Below, in pieces: positions 4,239 through 39,053 of a stretch of DNA of 64,000 nt (position 1 is the stretch's first letter; each line of letters opens with the position of its first letter). Source of the DNA: an uncultured Pseudomonadales bacterium (GTDB lineage: Bacteria; Patescibacteriota; Microgenomatia; UBA1400; UBA12108). Location of the stretch: contig CAZDRB010000001.1 in NCBI GenBank assembly GCA_964507925.1, positions 15,072 to 79,071 of the forward strand, written 5' to 3'. The position numbers were made by a program, and so were the translations under genes. The notes under the pieces were generated by a model that was not told where the DNA came from, did not search any database, and saw only the letters and a program-made list of their open reading frames with translations.

Positions 4239-4874
4239 TTATAGTGCATGTTGGGATAGATTGGTTAAACATTCTTTTAGATGCTCAGTATAGTTGAGTA
4301 CCAGAACCCTTGCTTCCCTATTTTTTACTTCAATTATCGTAACTGCGGCAGGGTCAATCCTGAGTGACCAAAACCTATCTGGACTCATGTTAAGAACAGA
4401 CATCAAGATGACTCGGATCACGTTGTCATGAGTTGTGACCGCGATGTCTCCACCATCTTGCATTAGTTCGGAAAAGCGGTTGAGCACGCGACTCTCAAGG
4501 TCCTCAAAAGATTCCCCTCCCGGGAAAACTACTTTCTCCGGATCATTGTTCCAGGTGCGCAGGGTATCTCCCCATTTAGCTTGTATCTCTAGCTTTGATT
4601 TTCCTTCCCATTCCCCGTGATTGGATTCGATTATCTGTTGATCCAATACTACCCGCGCACCAGTCGCCAAGCCGATTTGTTCGGCAGTTTTTTTGGTACG
4701 AATGAGTGGGCTCGTGTATATTTTTTCAAGATTTTTGCCTGAGAAATATTGCCCCAAAGCATGCACTTGCTGAACTCCAAGTGGCGATAGATCTGTATTG
4801 TAAGTTTGCCCTTGATAAATTCCTTGGGTATTGGCAATCGATTCGCCGTGACGAATCAAGTATATTTTGGCCAT
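4239..4874 (-). CDS. Histidine phosphatase family protein (phosphoglycerate mutase-like / CobC-like)
   Basis: N-terminal IYLIRHGESIANTQG (RHG catalytic motif) and a later TTHDNVIRV His. 211 aa. Confidence 0.8.
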   Translation of the reverse strand: MAKIYLIRHGESIANTQGIYQGQTYNTDLSPLGVQQVHALGQYFSGKNLEKIYTSPLIRTKKTAEQIGLATGARVVLDQQIIESNHGEWEGKSKLEIQAKWGDTLRTWNNDPEKVVFPGGESFEDLESRVLNRFSELMQDGGDIAVTTHDNVIRVILMSVLNMSPDRFWSLRIDPAAVTIIEVKNREARVLVLNYTEHLKECLTNLSQHAL

Positions 4875-4880
4875 AAAAAA

Positions 4881-4912
4881 ACCTCCTACATGCTCACGGC
4901 CGTTTAGGAGGT
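4881..4912 (-). promoter_or_regulatory. Hairpin ACCUCCUA-16nt-UAGGAGGU followed by U6 and then the AUG of the phosphatase gene: terminator-like stem whose 3' arm is the Shine-Dalgarno
   Basis: Minus-strand transcript reads ACCUCCUAAACGGCCGUGAGCAUGUAGGAGGUUUUUUUAUG. The AGGAGG sits 7 nt before the start codon and pairs with the upstream CCUCCU. Confidence 0.4.
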
Positions 4913-5014
4913 GCCACCTTGTGCGATACTTGATTAAACTGCTATTACGGGCTTACCCGTTCCGGTTGCGACACCGGACAGCTTGTTTAGTGGAAAGCTA
5001 AACTCAGACGCCTT

Positions 5015-5497
5015 TTATTTAATTTTGTTTAGTTTACCATGTTTTTTTATCAGGTCAAATCCCTCTTCGACTGCAGGGAGCGTGAGTGGGAGGCAATCGA
5101 GCTCTTTGGCCTCGTCGAGAGTGAACCAGCCGCACTCAGATGTTTCCCAATCTGGGTCTTGTGTTAGATCTGGCACTTGATCTCCGATCTCGACTAGATA
5201 AGTAATCAAGATAACCTGGGTGTCCATTTTTTCGTCTGATTCGTCGGCGTACCAAATACTAGTTTTGACAATCGGATAAGGATGGATAATGCTCGCCTTG
5301 ACTCGCAGCTCCTCCCACATCTCACGCCTAACTCCCTCTTCCATCGTCTCGCCAAAGTCAAGCGCTCCTCCTGCAATTTGCCATTTGTTGTGCCAAGCAG
5401 GATTGTCAGGTGAGTGCCTTTTGGTGAGTAAGACTTTTTGGCCATCAGTTGAGACTGGCAGACCTAGGGCCGCGACGATGATTTTTTGTTTGCTCAT
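5015..5497 (-). CDS. NUDIX hydrolase
   Basis: Nudix box GGALDFGETMEEGVRREMWEELRV. Start taken at MSKQKIIVAALG (ATG at 5497), giving an ATGA overlap with the upstream HD gene stop; the track ORF extends further 5'. Confidence 0.8.
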   Translation of the reverse strand: MSKQKIIVAALGLPVSTDGQKVLLTKRHSPDNPAWHNKWQIAGGALDFGETMEEGVRREMWEELRVKASIIHPYPIVKTSIWYADESDEKMDTQVILITYLVEIGDQVPDLTQDPDWETSECGWFTLDEAKELDCLPLTLPAVEEGFDLIKKHGKLNKIK

Positions 5498-6048
5498 AGA
5501 CCAAGATCCTCGGCAATCGACTGCATAGCGGCGAGAACTGTCGGAACATGCTCCTCCCACAGGTCAACTCCGAGCTCGCGAGCCCCCTGCTCTACTTCTT
5601 GTCGATTTACTCCCTGCGCAAAGCTCTTGTCTTTCCATTTTTTCTTGATACTTTTGACTTCGACGTCCGCAATTTTTTTACTTGGTCGGACAAGTGCAGT
5701 TGTCGTGATCAGTCCTGTAATTTCGTCGCAAGCAAAGAGAGCTTTTTCCATGAGAGTGTCGCGAGATACTCCGGTACGAGGAGCGTGTGACTGGATCGCA
5801 CGTATAATTTCCTCGTCGACCCCGCGCTCTCGGAGGATTGGGGCGCCTTTTGCAGGATGCCCATCTAGGTCAGGATGGATCTCCCAGTCAAAATCGTGTA
5901 GGAGACCGGTCACGCGATATTTTTCTTCGTCTTCGCCAAATTTTTTGGCATAGGCTACCATCGCCGCCTCGACTGCAAGCATGTGGCGGACTAGATTCTC
6001 GTTTTTGACAAATTCGCGAACAATTTTTAGCGCGTCATCACGATTCAT
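5494..6048 (-). CDS. HD-domain phosphohydrolase (HDIG/YqeK-like)
   Basis: RHMLAVE ... GLLHDFD motifs (H..HD). 184 aa. Confidence 0.7.
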   Translation of the reverse strand: MNRDDALKIVREFVKNENLVRHMLAVEAAMVAYAKKFGEDEEKYRVTGLLHDFDWEIHPDLDGHPAKGAPILRERGVDEEIIRAIQSHAPRTGVSRDTLMEKALFACDEITGLITTTALVRPSKKIADVEVKSIKKKWKDKSFAQGVNRQEVEQGARELGVDLWEEHVPTVLAAMQSIAEDLGL

Positions 6049-14277: not shown

Positions 14278-14814
14278 ATGGCAGATTACATTGTTCTTCA
14301 TGGTAGTGGTGGCATAGACATGTGGATACCATGGTTAGAAAAAGAACTGAAAAGTAAAGCTTCTGATGTATGGGTACCGACACTTCCTGATCCTGGTGAG
14401 CCAGATCTCAAGAAGCAGCTTCCGTTTTTGCTGGAGAGCAACAAGATAGGTCCAGAGTCAACTATTATTGGACACTCCGCATCTTGTCCGCTGATTTTGA
14501 GCTTACTAGAAAACTTGGATATAACTGTAAAAAAAGTTGTCCTCGTTGCTGGATATAATAAGCCATTGATAAATAGTGTGTCTGATCCAATTTTGCAAGA
14601 TAGTTACAACTGGGAGAAGATAAAGAAAGCTGCTAAAGAGTTTGTTTTTGTAGTATCAGACAATGATCCGTGGGGGTGTGGAGAGGAGATGAATAGACCG
14701 ATATTCGAACAAGTAGGTGGCACTTTCGTCATTGTTCATGACGGAGGACATTTTGGATCTAATACTTTTAAGAAACCGCTGTACGAATTCCCTCTTTTAC
14801 TGGGCTTGATTTAG
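14278..14814 (+). CDS. RBBP9/YdeN-like alpha/beta serine hydrolase
   Basis: IVLHGSGG ... IIGHSASCP (GHSxS nucleophile elbow) ... VSDNDPWG ... HDGGHF (Ser-Asp-His triad order of PF06821). Start at MADYIV (ATG 14278); TTGATA at 14241, TATAAT at 14266, 6 nt, then ATG. Confidence 0.6.
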   Translation: MADYIVLHGSGGIDMWIPWLEKELKSKASDVWVPTLPDPGEPDLKKQLPFLLESNKIGPESTIIGHSASCPLILSLLENLDITVKKVVLVAGYNKPLINSVSDPILQDSYNWEKIKKAAKEFVFVVSDNDPWGCGEEMNRPIFEQVGGTFVIVHDGGHFGSNTFKKPLYEFPLLLGLI

Positions 14815-15291
14815 TTGCTTATCTATTCCCCCCTCTACCTCAGTCCCAAAGGTGACAAGGAGCTTGTCGCTGGGATTAATTGTTTGAGTGAGGGCGTTGG
14901 GGTTCTCGACTCCGTTCACGAAAAATCTCAATGTCCCGCTATCGCCTGTGCAAAATGTTTGGCCAGTACCCGTGGTTAGACACTCATTCGTCAGCTTCAT
15001 CGGGAGAGTAGAGAAAAAGTCGCCCCACGTAGTTCCCTGCTTTTTGACTTTGATCAGGCTCGGATTATCTGCCTCTATATATACGTCGGGGGAGAGATTG
15101 TGATATTTGGGATCGCTAAAAAACCTTAACGTTTGGTGAGTATAGATAGTAAATGATGCCTGTATGTCTAACTCTGAAATGATTACTTCTTTCGGGCTTG
15201 AACCTGAGGACATGTCTTGAGTTTTTTTGCTGGTGAAATATGTGAGCCCTGCGATAGCAAGAGCGAAGATGAGGAAAATTTTGAGTTTCAT
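14797..15291 (-). CDS. Secreted protein of unknown function; paralog of the 32527..33036 product
   Basis: Signal peptide MKLKIFLIFALAIAGLTYF. Shared blocks with 32527..33036: ASFTIYTHQT / AGFRVYVDD, KKQGTTWGDFFSTL / HRSGATWGDLFKNI, FFVNGVENPNA / GYVDGELVENV. Confidence 0.5.
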   Translation of the reverse strand: MKLKIFLIFALAIAGLTYFTSKKTQDMSSGSSPKEVIISELDIQASFTIYTHQTLRFFSDPKYHNLSPDVYIEADNPSLIKVKKQGTTWGDFFSTLPMKLTNECLTTGTGQTFCTGDSGTLRFFVNGVENPNALTQTINPSDKLLVTFGTEVEGGIDKQLNQAQ

Positions 15292-30286: not shown

Positions 30287-31324
30287 ATGAAACAGATCTT
30301 TTGGTTATTCCTCCTGATACTTGTAGTTTGCATCCCCGGGCTAGAAAGGTTGATTCCGAGCTCAAAATTTTCTGGAGAGATAGTCTCGATCTCAGAAACT
30401 GCGGACTCTCCCATTCCTTTTAAAACTGCGACTGTTCTTCGCGAGGACAATACTATTGTCGAGGCGAGTATATATGACTTAAATGTGGCTTACGCTGTTG
30501 GCGAGAGAATCTTGTTGCAGCAAGATACTGATGAATCTGTTTATAGTGTGACTGGGAAAGAGCGAACGGGGGCATTATTTAGGCTTTTTGTTTTGTTTGT
30601 CGGGGTCATTGTAATTGTGAGCGGAATCTCGGGAGTGAGGTCGCTCGTAGGGCTTGCATTTTCTTTTTTGGTAATTTTTAAGTACGTATTACCTCAGATA
30701 GTCGCTGGGGGTAATCCGTTGAGCATAGCCTTGTCGGCTAGTCTCATAATTCTATCTGTTTCTTATTATCTGACCCATGGAGTCAACCACAAATCGACGA
30801 TTGCCATAATCGGAACACTTGGGGCGCTCACGGTAACCGGAGTACTTGCAATGGTTTTTTCTTCGCTTACGACTCTGACTGGATTTGGAACTGAGGAAGC
30901 AGGATTTTTGATTGATCGCCTGACACTCGGAAACTTCTACAACTTACTTTTGGCCGGAATTATCCTCGGCTCTTTAGGTGTACTTGATGACATTACGATC
31001 TCCCAAACCTCGATTGTGGCAGAACTCTCTCAGGCAAATAAAAAGCTTGGAGCGCGCGAGCTATACACTCGTGCAATGAGGATAGGCCATGATCATATTT
31101 CCTCCTTGGTCAATACCCTAGTTCTTGTCTACACTGGGAGCGCTCTACCGCTACTTCTTTTATTTGTAACAAGCGACGCTAGCGTGTATGAGCTACTTAA
31201 CTACGAGGCAGTTGCTGAGGAAGTTGTGAGGACACTAGTTGGCTCGATCGGCCTAGTCTCTGCTGTCCCGTTGACGACAATTATCGCCTCCTACTGGTAC
31301 TCTACTCGTGATGGGAGAGTGTGA
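30287..31324 (+). CDS. YibE/F-family polytopic membrane protein
   Basis: ~8 TM with GSLGVLDDITISQTS, recalled as the conserved YibE/F motif. 345 aa. Confidence 0.55.
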   Translation: MKQIFWLFLLILVVCIPGLERLIPSSKFSGEIVSISETADSPIPFKTATVLREDNTIVEASIYDLNVAYAVGERILLQQDTDESVYSVTGKERTGALFRLFVLFVGVIVIVSGISGVRSLVGLAFSFLVIFKYVLPQIVAGGNPLSIALSASLIILSVSYYLTHGVNHKSTIAIIGTLGALTVTGVLAMVFSSLTTLTGFGTEEAGFLIDRLTLGNFYNLLLAGIILGSLGVLDDITISQTSIVAELSQANKKLGARELYTRAMRIGHDHISSLVNTLVLVYTGSALPLLLLFVTSDASVYELLNYEAVAEEVVRTLVGSIGLVSAVPLTTIIASYWYSTRDGRV

Positions 31325-32045
31325 ACATCAGGATAATCCCAACTAAGAACATAATAATAGTTGAAATCGTCTTCCTCGTGGTTTTGCTTTCTTTAAGTTC
31401 TGGCACAAGGTCAGCGGCGGCAATATAGATAAAGCCACCGGCTGCAGCGGGGATCAAGTAGGAAGCAACAACTTCGCTACTGATTGAGAGATAATAGCCC
31501 AAGACTCCACCAATTACCGCGGTTAACGAAACGGCGACGTTGGCGATAAGCGCTTTGGTGCGGGTGTAGCCGGAATGCAAGAGTACTCCGTAGTCGCCTA
31601 GTTCTTGGGGAATTTCGTGGAGTGCGATTGCTAGTACTGCGACTACACCTAGCGACTCGCCAGTTGCAAATGAGGCAGCAATCAAGAGTCCGTCAAGAAA
31701 GTTATGCAGTCCGTCTCCGATCAGGTTCATTGTGCCGATTGTGTGTTTGGTCAAGTGATTTTCGTCGTGGCAGTGCCTCCAGTGGAGAAAGCGCTCGAGG
31801 AGGAAGAAGATAATAAAAGAAACGAGCGCGATATTAAACGGCAAGTGGTCGCCGAGGAGCTCGATAGATTCTGGAAGCTGGTGCAAAAAAGCTGCTCCAA
31901 GCATGGTGCCTGCTGAGAGGGAGACGAGCGGGAGAAGGAGTCGATTAAGAAGTTTGGGCTTGATCCCGATGACCAAAACACCGATAAGGGAACCGGAGCT
32001 AATAATGAGGGTGGCCAGGATGATTGTAAGTAATTCAGGTGACAT
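31302..32045 (-). CDS. zupT: ZIP-family zinc transporter (ZupT-like)
   Basis: HEIPQELGDYGVLLHSG (ZIP signature HExPxExGD) and His-rich loop HWRHCHDENH. Start at MSPELLTIIL (ATG 32045). Confidence 0.8.
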   Translation of the reverse strand: MSPELLTIILATLIISSGSLIGVLVIGIKPKLLNRLLLPLVSLSAGTMLGAAFLHQLPESIELLGDHLPFNIALVSFIIFFLLERFLHWRHCHDENHLTKHTIGTMNLIGDGLHNFLDGLLIAASFATGESLGVVAVLAIALHEIPQELGDYGVLLHSGYTRTKALIANVAVSLTAVIGGVLGYYLSISSEVVASYLIPAAAGGFIYIAAADLVPELKESKTTRKTISTIIMFLVGIILMFTLSHHE

Positions 32046-32460
32046 AGTTTCCTTTCTTTTGGCATGGGCCACAGAGTCCGAAGAACTCAATGGCGTGGCG
32101 TGTAATGTTAAACCCACCAGAAATATTTAGCTTGTTTATTTGTTTTTCGAATGTGGAATCTTTGATTTCTACAATAGTATGACAACTATCGCAAACCGCG
32201 TGATGATGGTGATCGTGGACATACTCGTAGCGAAACTTGCCTTCTTGAAAGTCTACTCGCTCAAAAATACCAACTGAGACAAATTTTTCGAGGGTGCGAT
32301 AGATAGTTGCCAGATGTGCCTGGCTGCCAAGTTTTTTGGCGACATCTTCGACCGTGAGAGGTTTTTTGGAATTGATCAAAGTATCAAGCACTCTTATTCT
32401 CGCTGGAGTAATCTTGATTCCGGAGGCAGAGATTATTTCGTTTATATTCTTGCGACTCAT
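32035..32460 (-). CDS. Fur-family metalloregulator, probably Zur
   Basis: ITPARIRVLDTL ... ATIYRTLEKFVSVGI (wHTH), HHHHAVCDSCH and CGPC metal sites. Immediately upstream of zupT and overlapping it by 11 nt, the usual zur-znu/zupT arrangement. Confidence 0.8.
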   Translation of the reverse strand: MSRKNINEIISASGIKITPARIRVLDTLINSKKPLTVEDVAKKLGSQAHLATIYRTLEKFVSVGIFERVDFQEGKFRYEYVHDHHHHAVCDSCHTIVEIKDSTFEKQINKLNISGGFNITRHAIEFFGLCGPCQKKGNYVT

Positions 32461-32488
32461 TCGCATATTATATTGCGAATAATTCGCA
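32459..32488. promoter_or_regulatory. Fur/Zur-box-like operator: palindrome ATTCGCA-TATTATAT-TGCGAAT plus a third half-site AATTCGCA
   Basis: Read directly: perfect 7-nt inverted arms around an AT-rich spacer. Overlaps the regulator's own start codon and abuts the -35 of the divergent promoter. Confidence 0.5.
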
Positions 32489-32489
32489 T

Positions 32490-32526
32490 TTGTCAACATG
32501 CAAAATTTGTTGTGTATAATTTGGCT
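32490..32526 (+). promoter_or_regulatory. Sigma-70-type promoter of the His-rich secreted protein gene: TTGTCA (32490-32495), 19 nt, TATAAT (32515-32520), 6 nt, ATG
   Basis: Read directly. TG at -15/-14; -10-to-ATG spacing matches the other leaderless-type starts in the window. Confidence 0.4.
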
Positions 32527-33036
32527 ATGAAACTCAGGGCTAGGCTAACCATCTACACTTTGGTAATTATGATTCTTGGAATAGGGGTTTATGCGTATCG
32601 CCCTGCCGATCGTGATCATGTTCATTATCACGCGGGCTTTCGCGTGTATGTAGACGACCAGCTACACGACTTTTCGCTTTTTGAGTACATGAACTACACG
32701 CCGTGTTCTGATCATGATCAAAAAGAGTCCCCCGAGGACGAGCAAATTGAAAAGGCTCACCTTCATGACAATGTGGGTGATGTAGTACATGTTCACCGCA
32801 GTGGCGCGACCTGGGGCGACCTGTTTAAAAATATTAACTATAAATATGATAGCTACGAAAGAGTAAGCGGATACGTAGATGGTGAGCTGGTTGAGAACGT
32901 TTTTGAGAGTGAGATTGCCCCGTACACCAGCCTGATACTACTAATTGACGATTCTGATGCAACGAGGAGCGCGGAGCGAGTCGAAAAGAGTTACATCGAA
33001 CAAGTGGAAGCTAAGAGCGAGCTTTGTGGTGAGTAG
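32527..33036 (+). CDS. His-rich secreted protein of unknown function, paralog of the 14797..15291 product, putatively Zur-regulated
   Basis: Start at MKLRARLTIYTLVIMILGIGVYA (signal/anchor). His clusters DRDHVHYHAGF, CSDHDQ, AHLHDN, VVHVHRSG; ATWGDLF block shared with the paralog. The longer 5' extension in the track is an artefact. Confidence 0.55.
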   Translation: MKLRARLTIYTLVIMILGIGVYAYRPADRDHVHYHAGFRVYVDDQLHDFSLFEYMNYTPCSDHDQKESPEDEQIEKAHLHDNVGDVVHVHRSGATWGDLFKNINYKYDSYERVSGYVDGELVENVFESEIAPYTSLILLIDDSDATRSAERVEKSYIEQVEAKSELCGE

Positions 33037-35449
33037 ACTCTAATCTCAGAAGATACTTGAATATCTCGATTACAAAAAATATCATCACCGAGAGCCCGAT
33101 TGCGATTGTCCAGTACTCTATACCTAGGCTCACTGTGCCAAAAATACCTCTAAGTCCTGGAACAATAAACGGCAAGGACTGAAGGAAAAATCCGACTAGA
33201 ACTGCAAGAATTAGATAGCGATTGGAGAACATTTTGTCACGCCAAAACGCGGTTGTGAGGAGACGAACAGAGAATACGTAGGCAAGTGAGTTGAGACCCA
33301 GGACCAAGAATGACATAGAGCGAGATAGTGTCTCGTCGCCGGTTTGTTGATATACAAAATAAAAACTTCCAAAAGCAAAGATCGAGGCAAAGATGCTGAC
33401 GATCGCGATCAGGCTAATCATCCAGCGATTAACAAGCGGCTCTTTGGGTCGCCTTGGTGGAAAGTTCATAATACCCTTTCGCTCCGGGTCGACGGTGAGA
33501 GCTAGGCTAGGGAAGCCGTCTGAGACGATATTAATCCAGAGTATTTGGGCTGCTGTCAAAGGGAGTGGCACACCTATGGCTATTGCGGTAATGACGACGA
33601 TAATCTCGGCAAAAGCGTCACAGAGTAAGTAGAGAATAATTTTTCTGATGTTATCAAACATGGCTCGACCTTCTTTGATGGCGCGGATTATGGTCTCAAA
33701 ATTAGAGTCCAAGAGAACTAGGTCGGCAGTTTCTCTGGCTACGTCGGTCGCGGAATCAACAACAATTCCTATATCAGCTAGGTGGAGTGCTGGAGCATCG
33801 TTGACTCCGTCACCCATCATGGCAACTACCTCACCTTGCTTTTTGAGGGCTTGGACAATTAGGTATTTGTCGGAAGGAGTTGTGCGGGCAAAGAGGATCG
33901 TGCTTTTGACTGCTTCTAGTTGATCGTGCTCGCCGAGCCCTGCGAAATCATCTCCCAAAACAACCTGAGAACTAGAAATATCTATCTCTAGTTCTTTGAG
34001 TACATCGAGGGCAGTAGGGGCGTAGTCGCCGGTGATGACGAGGAGCTTGATCCCAGCACGACTAGCCTCTCGGAGTGCGTTTTTGACGCTAGTTCTGACG
34101 GGATCGGCAAAGGAAATTAATCCCGTAAATTTCAAATTGTTTAGCACACTAGAATCAGATATTTTTGCGGCCTGCTTGTAATCTTTGTTTGAGTAGGCGA
34201 TCACTCGCCTGCCTTTTTCTGTCCAGCTTTGGATCGTAGTCTCGATTTGTTTTCGCTCGGAATCAGATATTGCACAAGCTTTGATAATAGTTTCTGGGGC
34301 TCCGCTGACGTAAAGAATGTTTTTGGTAGATGACTTGATTAGGGTTGCAGTGAATCTAGTTTCTGAAGAAAAGGGAATTGAGTCTAGACGAGATTCTGCA
34401 AGCTGTTTTTTTCCTATTATCTCTTGACCCCACCTATATGCTTCTGTGACCATGGGATCGTCATGATCACTCGTGAGAACGGCGTGCTTGGCAATCTCCT
34501 CTTGGCTGCCGTATGTATCTATTACTGCTAACTTGCCGGTTGTGAGCGTGCCTGTTTTGTCGACACAGATAATCGTGACTCCTCCCAATGTTTCGGCAGA
34601 TGAGAGCTGGCGAACTAGACCCTTGTGTTTCATTATTTTTTGCATTCCGATTGCGAGAATAATAGTGAGGGAGACAATTAGACCCTCGGGAATACTAGAG
34701 ACAGCAAGCGCGACGGCGGTAATAAAAATCTCACTGAGTGGTAGTCTTCTCCATATACCTAGAGTCACGACTACGGTAAGAAGTACCGCGATAATTACCA
34801 AGATCTGCCGACTCAGGACAGCTAGCTGATGCTCAAGTGGAGTTGGTGCTGACTTTGTATCGAGCTGGAGCGCTATTTGTCCCATTTTTGTCGAAGAGCC
34901 AGTTAACTTGACTAGACACACGACTTGGCCGGCGGCAACAATAGTCCCCATATATACTTCGTCACCGACCTCTTTTTTGACTGGCTGGCTCTCGCCAGTT
35001 AAGAGCGCTTCGTCGAGCATTAGTCTGTTGGCAAAGATCACTTCGGCGTCAGCGGGAACTCTGTTTCCCGAGTCAAGAATCAAGGTGTCACCAGGTACAA
35101 TCTCTTCTGTATCTATCTCTATTAGCTTGCCATCTCTTTTGACTTTGACACGACTGGTCAAATAACTTTTGAGTTTGGAGAGTGCGTTTGAGGCTCTGTA
35201 TTCCTGGACGTAGCCAAGGATTGTGTTAATGAGAACCGCAATCATGATAATCACGGCGTCGCTTATGTGACCGATAAATAGAGTGATCAAGGTGGCGATG
35301 AGAAGAACATAGACAAAAGGATTTTTGAGTTGGGAGAGAAACACCTCTAGTCTAGTTGGTGGAGGCTTGTGCGGGAGAATATTGGGACCGTATTTTTTTT
35401 GGAGAGCGAGAGCGTTCGATGAGCTTAGACCCGTGTATTCAGGAAACAT
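33011..35449 (-). CDS. P-type ATPase, P2 type (Ca2+-transporting, PEGL motif)
   Basis: CVDKTGTLTTGKL (phosphorylation site), SSIPEGLIV (PEGL in TM4), [20 protein letters not shown]. 812 aa. Confidence 0.85.
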   Translation of the reverse strand: MFPEYTGLSSSNALALQKKYGPNILPHKPPPTRLEVFLSQLKNPFVYVLLIATLITLFIGHISDAVIIMIAVLINTILGYVQEYRASNALSKLKSYLTSRVKVKRDGKLIEIDTEEIVPGDTLILDSGNRVPADAEVIFANRLMLDEALLTGESQPVKKEVGDEVYMGTIVAAGQVVCLVKLTGSSTKMGQIALQLDTKSAPTPLEHQLAVLSRQILVIIAVLLTVVVTLGIWRRLPLSEIFITAVALAVSSIPEGLIVSLTIILAIGMQKIMKHKGLVRQLSSAETLGGVTIICVDKTGTLTTGKLAVIDTYGSQEEIAKHAVLTSDHDDPMVTEAYRWGQEIIGKKQLAESRLDSIPFSSETRFTATLIKSSTKNILYVSGAPETIIKACAISDSERKQIETTIQSWTEKGRRVIAYSNKDYKQAAKISDSSVLNNLKFTGLISFADPVRTSVKNALREASRAGIKLLVITGDYAPTALDVLKELEIDISSSQVVLGDDFAGLGEHDQLEAVKSTILFARTTPSDKYLIVQALKKQGEVVAMMGDGVNDAPALHLADIGIVVDSATDVARETADLVLLDSNFETIIRAIKEGRAMFDNIRKIILYLLCDAFAEIIVVITAIAIGVPLPLTAAQILWINIVSDGFPSLALTVDPERKGIMNFPPRRPKEPLVNRWMISLIAIVSIFASIFAFGSFYFVYQQTGDETLSRSMSFLVLGLNSLAYVFSVRLLTTAFWRDKMFSNRYLILAVLVGFFLQSLPFIVPGLRGIFGTVSLGIEYWTIAIGLSVMIFFVIEIFKYLLRLESTHHKARS

Positions 35450-35475: not shown

Positions 35476-35712
35476 TTAGTTTTTGACTCTATAGCCGAGA
35501 GATTCGATTACTAAGACAAATTTTTTTGGATCAGTTTGGGCGGGATCGTAGGTAATTACGGATTCTTGGCGCGCGTAGCTTGTACTACTCGTGATCACTC
35601 CCTTGAGCTCTCCTAGCTCACCGTCAATGTTGAGACTACAACTTACACAGTGTAGGCCGTCTAGCTTGAGGGTTATTTTGGTGCCTTTGGGTTTTTTGAA
35701 TAGATTGAACAT
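35476..35712 (-). CDS. copZ: Heavy-metal-associated (HMA) copper chaperone, CopZ-like
   Basis: LKLDGLHCVSCSLNIDGEL (HMA fold with CxxC). Start at MFNLFKK (ATG 35712), 2 nt after the upstream gene stop. Confidence 0.7.
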   Translation of the reverse strand: MFNLFKKPKGTKITLKLDGLHCVSCSLNIDGELGELKGVITSSTSYARQESVITYDPAQTDPKKFVLVIESLGYRVKN

Positions 35713-35713
35713 A

Positions 35714-36754
35714 CTAGATAACCTCCATGACACCACTATACATCCCCATACTACAGGTATAGGTATATTTACCGAGTTTGGTCGGAGTAAATTTGTGGAC
35801 CTTGGTGTCGACAGGTTTGAGAACGTCGTAGATATTGAAAGCTTTAAAGGTAAAAGCAGTTGCACAGCTATAGACCCCACCACTTGTGTTTAGAGTTAGC
35901 TCAACTGGAACGCCCGACTTGACGCGGAAGTAGCGCGGGGCATATCCACCATTTGAGACTGAGATCGTGACTTTTTGAATACCATTTTGCAAAAGGACAT
36001 TTGGATCTTGGCCCTTTGGCGCTGATTTGTCATAAGGTGGCAACAGCCTGACTATTTGTGGACCTAGTCTTTGAAGTGAATATGGACTATCGGCAACTTG
36101 GAGAATACCATTGATCCCGCTGATTCCCATAATAATTAACAGGAAGGCGGCGACGCGCAAAAAATCTCTTCGCCAGACTTCTGAGAGCCTGGAGGTACCG
36201 ATGCCTATGAGGAAAAATAGGGGGGCAGTCCCGAGGACAAATGTCCCCATAATTAGCGCTCCTTCGACCGCTGAGCTGCTACTGAGGGCGAGGACCGCCA
36301 TAGCTTGAGTCACTCCGCAAGGAACAAAGACAGTGAGTAAACCCAGAATCCCGGGGGCAAAGAGACTCGCATTTTGCTCGTTGTTTTTGAGTTTTTTGTA
36401 TACCCATCTAGGAGGACGGATCGCGATGTAGCGGAAAATGGGATGGACTTCGAGTAAATTGAGTGCGGTTGCGAGCATAAATCCGGCAGCGAGTCCCTGG
36501 AAAATCAACTTAGCTGTGAGTGACAGCTCAACTGCGCTCCCAACGAGGCCGAGTAAAGCTCCCAAAATCATGTGGCTCACTAGCTTGCTGGTCATGAAGG
36601 CAGTAACTGGAGCAATATCATCACGACCAAACCCTGGATTAACTGCGATCTTTTTCTGATTGGCTATCACACTCGCGAGTAGACCTCCCTGCATGGCGGC
36701 GCAAGTTACGCCACCTGTAGTTAATCCGGTCAAAAATATTAGCCAAAGATTCAT
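35714..36754 (-). CDS. Membrane protein (TauE/CcdA-like N-terminal permease-type domain) fused to a C-terminal periplasmic cupredoxin-like domain
   Basis: N-terminal ~230 aa polytopic with GVTCAAMQGG and VFVPCGVTQA Cys motifs. C-terminal YAPRYFRVKSGVPVELTLNT ... YTYTCSMGMYSGVMEV (cupredoxin_1-like with a Cys/Met Cu site). In an operon with copZ and copA. Confidence 0.5.
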   Translation of the reverse strand: MNLWLIFLTGLTTGGVTCAAMQGGLLASVIANQKKIAVNPGFGRDDIAPVTAFMTSKLVSHMILGALLGLVGSAVELSLTAKLIFQGLAAGFMLATALNLLEVHPIFRYIAIRPPRWVYKKLKNNEQNASLFAPGILGLLTVFVPCGVTQAMAVLALSSSSAVEGALIMGTFVLGTAPLFFLIGIGTSRLSEVWRRDFLRVAAFLLIIMGISGINGILQVADSPYSLQRLGPQIVRLLPPYDKSAPKGQDPNVLLQNGIQKVTISVSNGGYAPRYFRVKSGVPVELTLNTSGGVYSCATAFTFKAFNIYDVLKPVDTKVHKFTPTKLGKYTYTCSMGMYSGVMEVI

Positions 36755-36764
36755 AGTCTCTCCA

Positions 36765-39053
36765 TCATAAACGAATAGCTTTTAGGCGCAAGGAATTGGT
36801 AACGACTGAGACAGAGGAAAAAGCCATGGCGGCTCCGGCAATGCCAGGGTTGAGCATCACTCCGTAGAGAGGATATAAGATACCAGCGGCAATCGGAATT
36901 CCGATAATATTATAAAAGAACGCCCAAAAGAGATTTTGTTTGATGACGCGAAAAGTTAGGCGTGATAGTCGGATAGCTTGCGGGAGGCGCTCGAGATTGC
37001 CACCGAGGAGCGTGAGTCCTGCCGACTCGATTGCAACATCTGTGCCGGTCCCCATGGCGATACCAACATCAGAAGTAGCTAGAGCTGGGGCGTCGTTGAC
37101 TCCATCACCGACCATAGCGACCCCGCCATGGCGATGGTTTCGAGCTTGAATTTTTTTAATTATGTCGGCTTTTTCTCCCGGTAATACCTCTGCAAATATT
37201 TCGTCAATGCCGATCTGTTTACCGATATGTTCGGCGGTTAAGCGATGATCGCCGGTGAGCATGGCTACTTTGAGACCGAGCTTGTGCAGATCTTTAATAA
37301 CTTGCTCAGACTCTTCTTTGAGTGTGTCACTAACTCCTAGATACATCAAGATTGATTTTTTTGTAGCGAGGATAATTGGGGTTGCCCCCTCTTTGGCAAA
37401 TTCTTCGAGTATTGCTTGGTCTATTTTTATCCCCAACTCAGTCATGAGTTTGGTGTTGCCGGCATAATACTCTACCTTGTCGACTTTACCCTTGAGCCCT
37501 TGACCGGAAATTGCTGAAAAACCAGTTACTTGCAAAAGCTTGATCTTTTTTTCTTTTGCATGGTCAACTATGGCCTGCGCCAGAGGATGTTCCGATTGCG
37601 ACTCTAGCGAGGCCAAGATTTGCATAAGATTATCTTTACCAGAACCAACTATCTTGTGATGTGTGACGGATGGAGCGCCTTTGGTCAAGGTGCCGGTTTT
37701 GTCCAGAACAACAAAATTAACAGCGCGAAGCTTTTCCAGGCTTTCCGCATTTTTGACTAGAATCCCTTTGCCCGCTGCTTTGCCTACACCCACAATGATG
37801 GCGGTAGGCGTGGCTAGACCCAGGGCGCAAGGACAGGCAATCACAAGTATTCCCACAAAACTAAGAAGCCCTAGGAGGGGATTGCCGAGGGCTGTCCAGA
37901 GGACAAACACTAAAACTGAGAGGACAAGGACAATCGGAACAAATACGGCTGAGATCTGATCAGTCAATCTCTCAATAGGAGCGTGACTACCTTGAGCAGC
38001 CTCGACCATTTTGATGATTTGGGCAAGCATTGTACTCTCGCCGACAACGCTCGCGCGAAATTGAAATGCTCCTTGCTTGTTGATTGTGCCGCCAATTACT
38101 TTGTCACCGACTACCTTGTCTACCGGAAGAGGTTCTCCGGTTAACATCGATTCGTCGATACTGCTATCACCTTTGATAATTTTGCCGTCTACCGGGATTT
38201 TGACTCCAGGCTTGACGATAATGATCTCGCCTACGACTACTTCGCTAACTGGGATCTCGATCTCTTTCCCATCCCTAAGGACAAGCGCAGTTTTGGCTTG
38301 GAGTCCTAACAGCTTCTCGATCGCTTCGCCAGTCTTGAGCTTGGAGCTAGCTTCTAGATATTTGCCAAAAGTGATAAAGCCGATGACCACAATGGTCACG
38401 TCAAAGTATAATCCTTCTGGCGCACTTAGAGCTGCATGAATGCCTGGAAAAAGTAATAGTGTCGAACTATATATGTAGGCAACGAGCGTGCCAATGCCAA
38501 CCAAACTATCCATGTTGGCGACGCGGTATCTGATAAAGCGAGCTACTCCTTGAATATATGGTTGCCCGATCCAGAACATAATGGGAGTCGCTAGGACGAA
38601 AGAGAGAGAGTTAAATGTCATCATCGAGAGAGGGAGTTTGGGCAGGAAGCCAAATTGGCTTGATAAAAGATCCCAAATCATCAGGACAAAGACAATGAGC
38701 GCGATCGGCATGACGAAATAGGTTTTTTGACGTAGCTTGTCGAGCTCGGCCAATTTTTCGGCTTTTTTTGTGGAATCGGAAGTAACTACAGCACCCATGT
38801 CATGGCCATAGTGAGGACTCTTGGGATCGAGTGTATCAGAGAGTTTCATATCATGCATTGTGTATCCGAGTGGGGAGATTGCTTGATTGATAGTAGAGGT
38901 AGCCACATGGCGCGAAGTTGATACTTCGGCGGTTTCGGTTGCTAGATTGACATGGGCCTTTTCCACTCCGGGCAACTTTTCTAGTTTGCGCTTGATAGTG
39001 CTCGCGCAGCTCGCGCAGTGCATGCCAGAAACTGAGTATTTAGTGGCTACCAT
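36765..39053 (-). CDS. copA: Copper-translocating P1B-type ATPase CopA
   Basis: N-terminal [19 protein letters not shown] motif [29 protein letters not shown]. 762 aa. Confidence 0.9.

Follow-up and report, generated by a model that had tools for sequence, protein, structure and literature searches.

In this work, we describe a gene at positions 32527..33036 of a 64-kb window of contig CAZDRB010000001.1 (by window we mean the whole stretch of DNA analysed). Its product, for which we coin the name HisP, is a small His-cluster protein of candidate-phyla-radiation (CPR) bacteria. Taken as a whole, our data are best explained by HisP being a Zur-controlled surface zinc binder that feeds a ZIP-family importer, a reading to which we assign a probability of about 0.6. 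The initial annotation of this stretch had predicted an extracytoplasmic metal-binding protein induced by zinc limitation. This prediction gains support from the divergent operon of a Fur-family regulator and a ZIP gene, from a conserved operator in the region between them and HisP, from conserved His ligands, and from homologs that adjoin metal-uptake genes or, in one protein, are fused to a ZIP domain. The further suggestion of a zincophore-like component found no support, and we prefer to speak of a metal-binding or chaperone role at the surface.

According to the mechanism we favour, the HisP promoter stands back-to-back with that of zur-zupT and would give rise to an mRNA that is probably leaderless. 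When zinc is plentiful, Zn-Zur would occupy the operator boxes and switch off zur-zupT and, presumably, HisP. Under zinc limitation, zur-zupT and HisP would both be expressed, and HisP would capture Zn2+ at the cell surface and, by a putative hand-off, pass it to the ZIP importer or concentrate it nearby.

The control region between zur and HisP

The features on which the regulatory argument depends are the following.

32527..33036, plus strand: HisP gene, an open reading frame (ORF) of 169 aa for a predicted membrane-anchored protein with an extracytoplasmic His-cluster domain of the H90 type (see below)
32035..32460, minus strand: Fur-family regulator gene, zur (PF01475, E 6e-24), with its probable start at ATG 32460 (MSRKN...)
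31302..32045, minus strand: gene of a ZIP-family metal importer, zupT-like (PF02535, E 7e-44), 247 aa on the public contig
32474..32488: box 2, a Fur-family (Zur-type) operator, TGCGAATAATTCGCA, a perfect 6-3-6 palindrome
32451..32465: box 1, TGCGACTCATTCGCA, with one mismatch, overlapping the first zur codons
32493..32520, plus strand: HisP promoter, TCAACA-N16-TATAAT, its -10 ending 6 nt before the ATG
32467..32496, minus strand: zur-zupT promoter, TTGACA-N18-TATAAT, matching the consensus at 12/12 positions and bracketing box 2

Gene context was compared across 81 loci, that is, 80 from species-representative genomes and the window's own contig (L001); neighbours were labelled with jackhmmer, and representatives were confirmed with Pfam and NCBIfam. 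Because the ZIP gene overlaps the zur stop codon, we place both in one operon. When zur is started at 32460, its N-terminus aligns with the 137-aa orthologs of L003 and L004, which have the same length. The ORF lister placed the start at 32499, an apparent over-extension, since the zur mRNA looks leaderless.

Two copies of the palindrome TGCGAAnnnTTCGCA, boxes 1 and 2, lie in the 66 bp from the probable zur start (32460) to the HisP ATG (32527); the window has no other match. Box 2 lies between the -35 and the -10 of the minus-strand promoter, and 4 nt separate its end from the -35 on the plus strand. Moreover, the -35 hexamers of the two promoters overlap (32491-96 and 32493-98).

Exact copies of the box were found in seven of the 81 loci, namely L001 and six relatives, and always upstream of HisP, zur or a COG0523 gene. 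In the relatives (L002, L003, L004, L006, L008 and L009) the box lies directly upstream of HisP, and four of them (L004, L006, L008 and L009) also have tandem boxes. A second copy precedes zur in L002 and L003, where HisP and a divergent COG0523 GTPase gene share the copy nearest to HisP. HisP keeps the box in L002-L004 even though it does not adjoin zur there. The Fur-family operator that had been proposed at the divergent zur-zupT and HisP promoters is thus present at both boxes and kept in the six relatives.

We regard the box as the phylogenetic footprint of a Fur-family operator, whose targets, to judge by position, are ZIP, COG0523, the regulator itself and HisP. COG0523 is a hallmark Zur target, and ZIP, COG0523 and the regulator together would make up the content of a Zur regulon. 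The window gene shares the conserved operator with these zinc-homeostasis genes. We infer that the shared operator probably represses HisP as well, and put it no more strongly because the position of the box is fixed relative to the divergent promoter and variable relative to the HisP -10.

The distance of 6-7 nt from the -10 to the ATG, with no Shine-Dalgarno sequence, is kept in L002-L009. The same arrangement was observed for zur (32460, minus strand), HisP (32527, plus strand) and the COG0523 gene (L002 5963, minus strand). As these -10 hexamers end so close to the start codons, zur and HisP both look leaderless; the HisP mRNA is probably so, and the clade formed by L002-L009 and the window seems to use leaderless mRNAs routinely.

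A different arrangement occurs in L005, L011, L012 and L032, where only 18 bp separate the start codons of the divergent ZIP and HisP genes and there is no TGCGAA box. The 18-bp gap (about 25 nt upstream of the HisP start) itself forms a palindrome (ATGTTATTCTAACAT in L011): each start codon has its mirror image in the other, and so have the two -10-like hexamers, TATTCT and TAGAAT, which overlap. It may be either an operator or just two interlocked leaderless promoters.

In L004, two genes with no Pfam match (274 and 146 aa; 4599..5870, minus strand) lie between COG0523 and the tandem boxes and share the minus-strand operon with COG0523-zur-ZIP. The 146-aa protein ends in a Cys/His-rich tail, HAGHEHCDCGGHYKDGKCESCG. 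Both genes are candidates for additional members of the Zur regulon.

Ligands, topology and genomic contexts of the HisP family

An identical protein was called on the public contig, within an identical gene set. We collected 397 HisP homologs, all annotated as hypothetical proteins and all from CPR bacteria, and the family comprises 597 clusters at 50% identity. No family match was found for HisP, or for its paralog Par2 (see below), in Pfam (E<=1) or NCBIfam (E<=10), nor did a PDB sequence search return anything matching either protein, in agreement with the initial annotation, which could not name the family. Literature on zinc and Zur in Patescibacteria, and on CsoR and CopA in the candidate phyla radiation, yielded nothing relevant. 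The family therefore appears to be undescribed so far and essentially confined to CPR bacteria.

Many of the contigs with a HisP-type gene (L018-L081) carry labels such as 'uncultured Pseudomonadales/Gammaproteobacteria', 'Vitreimonas' or 'Lysobacterales'. On gene content that is CPR-like, these labels are probably placeholders or errors.

The protein features are listed below, with conservation counted over an alignment of 268 HisP family members (denominators range from 261 to 268 by column).

32527..32598, plus strand: N-terminal signal-anchor (residues 1-24), with K2, R4 and R6 followed by a hydrophobic helix and no AxA cleavage site
32623..32631, plus strand: H33-x-H35 motif in the first beta-strand (E31-42); H33 264/264, H35 263/264
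32704..32706, plus strand: C60, 268/268, the putative disulfide or ligand partner of C167
32758..32769, plus strand: H78-L-H80-D81 motif; H78 264/268, H80 267/268, D81 214/268
32788..32796, plus strand: H88-V-H90 motif; H88 268/268, position 90 being His in 254/268 and Glu in 12
33025..33027, plus strand: C167, the C-terminal Cys, 260/261

W96 (268/268) and E165 (250/261) are also conserved. Thus, H33, H35, C60, H78, H80, H88, W96 and C167 each exceed 98% conservation, and H90 reaches 95%. The family can be summarised by the motif string H-x-H-A-G-F...C...A-H-L-H-D...V-V-H-x-[HE]...W-x-D...E-x-C-G behind an N-terminal transmembrane (TM) helix, every element of which is present in the window protein.

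The initial annotation had described HisP as studded with His pairs, unlike Par2. This holds for the six His of the three HxH pairs, which are near-invariant, and the Par2 family has a single near-invariant His. It does not hold family-wide for H31 (of 'HVHYH'; 64/264) or H63 (of 'HDQ'; 109/268), both conserved solely in the zinc-context clade nearest to the window protein.

In the AF2 model of HisP (pLDDT 88.0), a TM helix spans residues 2-23, H33 and H35 lie on strand 31-42, and H78/H80 (78-79) and H88/H90 (E86-91) lie on the two arms of a hairpin. In a beta-strand every second residue points to the same side, so that all six imidazoles could come together in one patch. The three adjacent beta-strand segments with their HxH pairs would then, together with D81, D98, E161, E165 and C60/C167, provide one or two metal sites. 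We infer both metal binding and zinc specificity.

HisP is predicted to be a type-II membrane-anchored protein with its domain facing outside, because helix 2-23 opens with K2, R4 and R6 and has no AxA site. The architectures of fusion proteins agree with this extracytoplasmic topology. In P0338, a HisP domain of the H90 type, minus its own TM helix, follows the C-terminus of a ZIP protein, and the ZIP C-terminus is extracytoplasmic according to established ZIP topology. P0287, of the E90 type, consists of a cytoplasmic heavy-metal-binding domain (HMBD), a TM helix and a HisP domain, in that order. P0313 is a MauE membrane domain followed by HisP, and P0305 is a fusion of HisP with a GSDH beta-propeller.

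Nearly all of the 80 loci from representative genomes belong to Microgenomates, Dojkabacteria, Saccharimonadia or Parcubacteria, or to generically labelled metagenome-assembled genomes. A zinc context, that is, Zur, ZIP or COG0523 within about 3 kb, was recorded at 13/81 loci from three lineages, the COG0523 neighbour matching the ZigA and CobW models. Homologs were thus found near metal-uptake genes, as the initial annotation had anticipated, and near Fur-family boxes in the six relatives. Among recognisable metal contexts, copper export is commoner than zinc uptake. The copper context (19/81 loci) typically reads csoR-(CopM/DUF5676)-HisP-cupredoxin-copA/copB on one strand, with genes overlapping or near-abutting, and the ATPases of these operons carry CPC or CPH motifs. 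Thiol-disulfide neighbours (DsbA-like, DsbB-like, DsbD_2 or thioredoxin) were found at 11/81 loci. Roughly 35-40 of the 81 loci, depending on cut-offs, have no recurrent partner.

The two metal contexts divide the family at a single ligand. Zinc-context proteins have H90 in 13/13 cases, usually as VVHVHR with WGD (R91, G97), whereas copper-context proteins have E90 in 19/19, as VVH(V/I)E with W(R/K)D. There are no crossovers (Fisher's exact test, p = 3e-9, kinship ignored), although this value overstates the number of independent events because the split is partly inherited. In a rough neighbour-joining tree, zinc contexts form one clade of 11 plus two separate lineages and copper contexts about two subclades, and E90 also occurs in two further clades without copper genes. 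The fusions fit the split, ZIP-HisP being of the H90 type and HMBD-HisP of the E90 type. With VVHVHR, WGD and Zur and ZIP genes nearby, the window protein belongs to the H90 subfamily. Judging from these contexts, the HisP family would serve CPR bacteria as a metal module of general use outside the cytoplasm, with zinc-linked and copper-linked forms that differ at one ligand position.

Other genes recur near HisP. GSDH-type genes (PQQ glucose/sorbosone dehydrogenase-like) accompany the superfamily in P0305, P0131, L049, L064, L067 and L082. Apart from the HisP fusion P0305, some adjoin E90-type HisP (L049, L067) or lie upstream of it at a distance of about 1 kb (L064), and in L082 GSDH shares an operon with a cupredoxin and Par2. 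In the window, a P2-type (PMR1/SERCA/PMCA-like) cation ATPase gene (33011..35449, minus strand) is convergent with HisP, with a 3' overlap of 26 bp. This ATPase family also adjoins HisP in three other loci, convergently in L002 and on the same strand, with an overlap, in L021 and L032. Beyond it lies a copper-export cluster (35476..39053, minus strand) whose genes encode a chaperone-like HMA protein, a fusion of DsbD_2 with a cupredoxin, and a CopA of the CPC type. The same cluster stands beside the zinc locus in L003, L004, L008, L011 and L012, forming a conserved 'metal island'. On the other side of the window locus, a YibE/F-family membrane protein gene (30287..31324, plus strand) is convergent with the ZIP gene, overlapping it by 23 bp, and no Zur-type box was found upstream of it. 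The YibE/F-ZIP synteny is kept in L002-L008, and in L037 YibE/F directly precedes HisP on the same strand.

Weighing the zinc reading against its alternatives

Several observations count against HisP as a Zur-controlled zinc binder. The regulator had been called Zur; its membership of the Fur family (PF01475) and its ZIP and COG0523 targets stand, but NCBIfam models scored it at 82 bits for PerR, 78 and 75 for Fur and 48 for Zur, all below cut-off. The name rests on regulon content (ZIP and COG0523 targets), because the sequence cannot type the regulator as Zur, and ZIP and COG0523 proteins are not exclusively zinc-specific. Zinc genes are absent from the vicinity of 36 of the 49 H90-type loci, and beyond the closest clade no box can be recognised: when the upstream regions of these other 36 loci were searched for palindromes, only unrelated AT-rich ones turned up (e.g., in L010, L027, L052 and L081), none of them convincing. 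A search with P0338 returned separate ZIP proteins only, the ZIP-HisP fusion being one sequence on one contig. The geometry of the His cluster is read from strand positions alone. In addition, the window HisP adjoins a copper-export cluster, and its sister subfamily is copper-linked. Finally, the box abuts the minus-strand -35 in every locus, whereas its distance to the HisP -10 varies between 22 and 29 nt (by eye), and at about -39 to -53 of the HisP promoter it occupies a non-classical position for repression.

A metagenome scan with TGCGAATNNTTCGCAT matched at least 120 stretches. Among the matches listed, none encodes HisP, ZIP or COG0523, and three carry Fur-family genes; the scan is uninformative on the regulon.

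The placement of the box bears on an alternative that we consider unlikely, in which the operator controls only the divergent zur-zupT (or COG0523) genes and HisP is zinc-independent and merely a conserved neighbour. The constant spacing to the minus-strand -35 favours it, as do the location of the box upstream of the HisP -35, rather than on the -10 or +1, and the four loci (L005, L011, L012 and L032) in which HisP diverges from ZIP across 18 bp with no such box. Nevertheless, occupancy of box 2 should cover the HisP -35 as well, because the two -35 hexamers overlap and Fur-family footprints reach several bp past the core. Moreover, the divergent layout with the box is kept across three different partners, namely zur, COG0523 and an unknown gene in L004, and the tandem boxes suggest extended occupancy.

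HisP might instead be an extracytoplasmic copper binder or chaperone serving the adjacent copper-export cluster, its position next to zur-zupT being incidental. The family members in copper operons at 19 loci, next to ATPases with CPC or CPH motifs, speak for this, as does P0287, which couples a heavy-metal-binding domain and a TM helix to a HisP domain. All ligands other than position 90 are common to both subfamilies, and the HMA, DsbD_2-cupredoxin and CopA genes lie only 2.4-6 kb downstream of HisP in the window, with copper genes likewise beside HisP in L003, L004, L008, L011 and L012. However, every copper-operon member has E90 and every zinc-context member H90, and the sole ZIP fusion is of the H90 type. 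The copper genes of the window run towards HisP on the other strand, with the P2-type ATPase gene in between, and their cluster includes neither a CsoR gene nor an E90-type HisP. The window gene has a conserved Fur-family box and no CsoR gene nearby. We therefore find the copper role for this particular gene rather improbable.

Very improbable, in our view, is a small extracytoplasmic metalloenzyme or redox protein, either SodC-analogous with a bimetallic His6/Asp site and a disulfide or acting as a thiol-disulfide/metal-redox partner of Dsb, cupredoxin or GSDH proteins: the ligand inventory of six His, an Asp and one Cys pair in about 145 extracytoplasmic residues is SodC-like, 11 loci have Dsb or thioredoxin neighbours, fusions join HisP to MauE and the GSDH beta-propeller, GSDH genes lie near HisP in L049, L067 and L064, and the family is tied to copper as well as zinc loci, but the predicted fold is beta-grasp and not the SOD Greek-key barrel, no SOD match was found by PDB fold or sequence or in Pfam, a zinc-requiring enzyme induced in zinc starvation would be counter-productive, and the Dsb neighbours are equally explained by HisP as a disulfide-bonded substrate. 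Homology to the Cu,Zn superoxide dismutase SodC was rejected, as the fold differs and there were no matches.

Returning to the zinc reading, it can be extended into a broader proposal, which we offer tentatively and regard as doubtful in its entirety. HisP would be an undescribed beta-grasp metallochaperone, of general use outside the cytoplasm of CPR bacteria, which a one-ligand exchange (H90 versus E90) directs either to the acquisition of zinc or to the detoxification of copper. Zur would control the H90 form, with a ZIP importer as its partner and, in one protein, its fusion partner, whereas the E90 form would be CsoR-controlled and associated with CopA/CopB and cupredoxins. In the H90 form, prokaryotic ZIP importers would then have their first known dedicated accessory protein.

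Paralogy, fold and comparison with known systems

The second gene that the initial annotation had grouped with HisP is the following.

14797..15291, minus strand: Par2, 164 aa, a distant paralog with the same predicted fold, without the His cluster and with a Cys pair of its own, CLTTGTGQxFC

The proposed paralogy was confirmed by profile comparison. BLASTP gave 31% identity over 72 aa (E 5e-6), and hhalign, run on 38 aligned sequences per family taken from 397 HisP and 120 Par2 relatives, gave a probability of 98.7% (E 3.5e-16, 135 columns). Inside the window, each family HMM matches solely the other gene (E 2e-8 and 3.4e-4). In addition, HisP and Par2 domains occur in tandem within one natural protein, P0247. 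The AF2 model of Par2 (pLDDT 88.5) has the same order of elements as that of HisP (TM helix, beta-hairpin, short strand, strand, helix, strands and C-terminal helix). The two models differ in a helical insert of HisP (residues 60-76) and in a small hairpin of Par2 that bears its Cys pair. On this evidence, HisP and Par2 can be called distant paralogs.

The surroundings of Par2 are unrelated (a serine hydrolase, a DUF5665 protein and a uracil-DNA glycosylase-like ORF). A small cupredoxin-like protein with a signal-anchor (PF13473/PF00127; 12201..12647, minus strand) is encoded 2 kb away and may be unrelated. We rejected the idea of a zinc-sparing pair like the C+/C- ribosomal protein paralogs, since here the repressor-controlled copy is the one that carries the metal ligands.

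The structural neighbours of the Par2 model are intrinsic factor, haptocorrin, transcobalamin and 3u7z (probability 0.92-0.98, Foldseek E 0.02-0.06). The match to 3u7z (DUF4430) has a TM score of 0.66 normalised to the target, an rmsd of 3.5 A and a probability of 0.98, and intrinsic factor and haptocorrin reach 0.92-0.94. The HisP model also has beta-grasp neighbours, its DUF4430/transcobalamin-type matches being weaker than those of Par2. According to these models, the outer domain of HisP is beta-grasp-like and resembles the transcobalamin beta domain and DUF4430. Neither HisP nor Par2 had an HMM match to ZinT (PF09223), Strep_his_triad, Cu,Zn-SOD (PF00080), CopC or DUF4430 (PF14478).

We know of no extracytoplasmic accessory proteins for prokaryotic ZIP importers, and nearly all that is understood of surface zinc scavenging concerns ABC systems (ZnuA, ZinT, AdcA, Pht). 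If true, a His-cluster protein that is conserved, linked to ZIP and preceded by a Zur box would fill this gap. To our knowledge, the metal economy of CPR bacteria, with their tiny genomes and dependence on hosts, is essentially unstudied. With H90 in zinc-uptake and E90 in copper-export neighbourhoods, this small, well-predicted domain lends itself to a natural one-residue test of metal specificity. Moreover, several hundred clusters of 'hypothetical proteins' gain a handle for annotation.

As is predicted for HisP, the DUF4430 and transcobalamin beta domains (soluble-ligand-binding beta-grasp, SLBB) are extracytoplasmic ligand-binding modules; what they lack, and only HisP has, is the His cluster, the pair C60/C167 and the insert of helix at 60-76. 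ZinT/YodA and the ZinT domain of AdcA are extracytoplasmic His-based binders expressed from promoters controlled by a zinc repressor, and they have been proposed to feed a zinc importer. HisP would share with them the His-based metal binding outside the cytoplasm, the control by a zinc repressor and, as we propose, an importer as partner. Nevertheless, ZinT is lipocalin-like, soluble and partnered with an ABC importer (ZnuABC/AdcABC), whereas HisP is predicted to be beta-grasp-like, membrane-anchored and partnered with ZIP, and there is no sequence relationship between them. The zinc regulator AdcR represses the histidine triad (Pht) proteins of pneumococci, which scavenge zinc on behalf of an uptake system. 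Pht proteins and HisP are both surface-attached, in the case of HisP by prediction, and have repeated short His motifs. In Pht these are HxxHxH motifs in large multi-repeat lipoproteins, whereas those of HisP are three HxH pairs within one domain of 145 aa, and HisP has no match to Strep_his_triad.

The extracellular domains of LIV-1 ZIP proteins (e.g., the ZIP4 ECD) are, like HisP and P0338, His-containing extracytoplasmic modules on or with a ZIP permease. In eukaryotes these domains are N-terminal and unrelated in fold to HisP, whereas the bacterial ZIP-HisP fusion is C-terminal and a singleton. On the copper side, the E90 form fills the slot in csoR-copA operons that is otherwise held by CopC/PcoC, CusF, CopM, CopI cupredoxins or CopL/YdhK, and it adjoins CopM and cupredoxin genes. 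These proteins have no homology to HisP, and the window protein is of the H90, zinc-context type. While belonging to none of these families, HisP would thus find its closest functional analogues in ZinT/AdcA-ZinT and Pht for the H90 form and in CopC, CusF, CopM and CopI for the E90 form.

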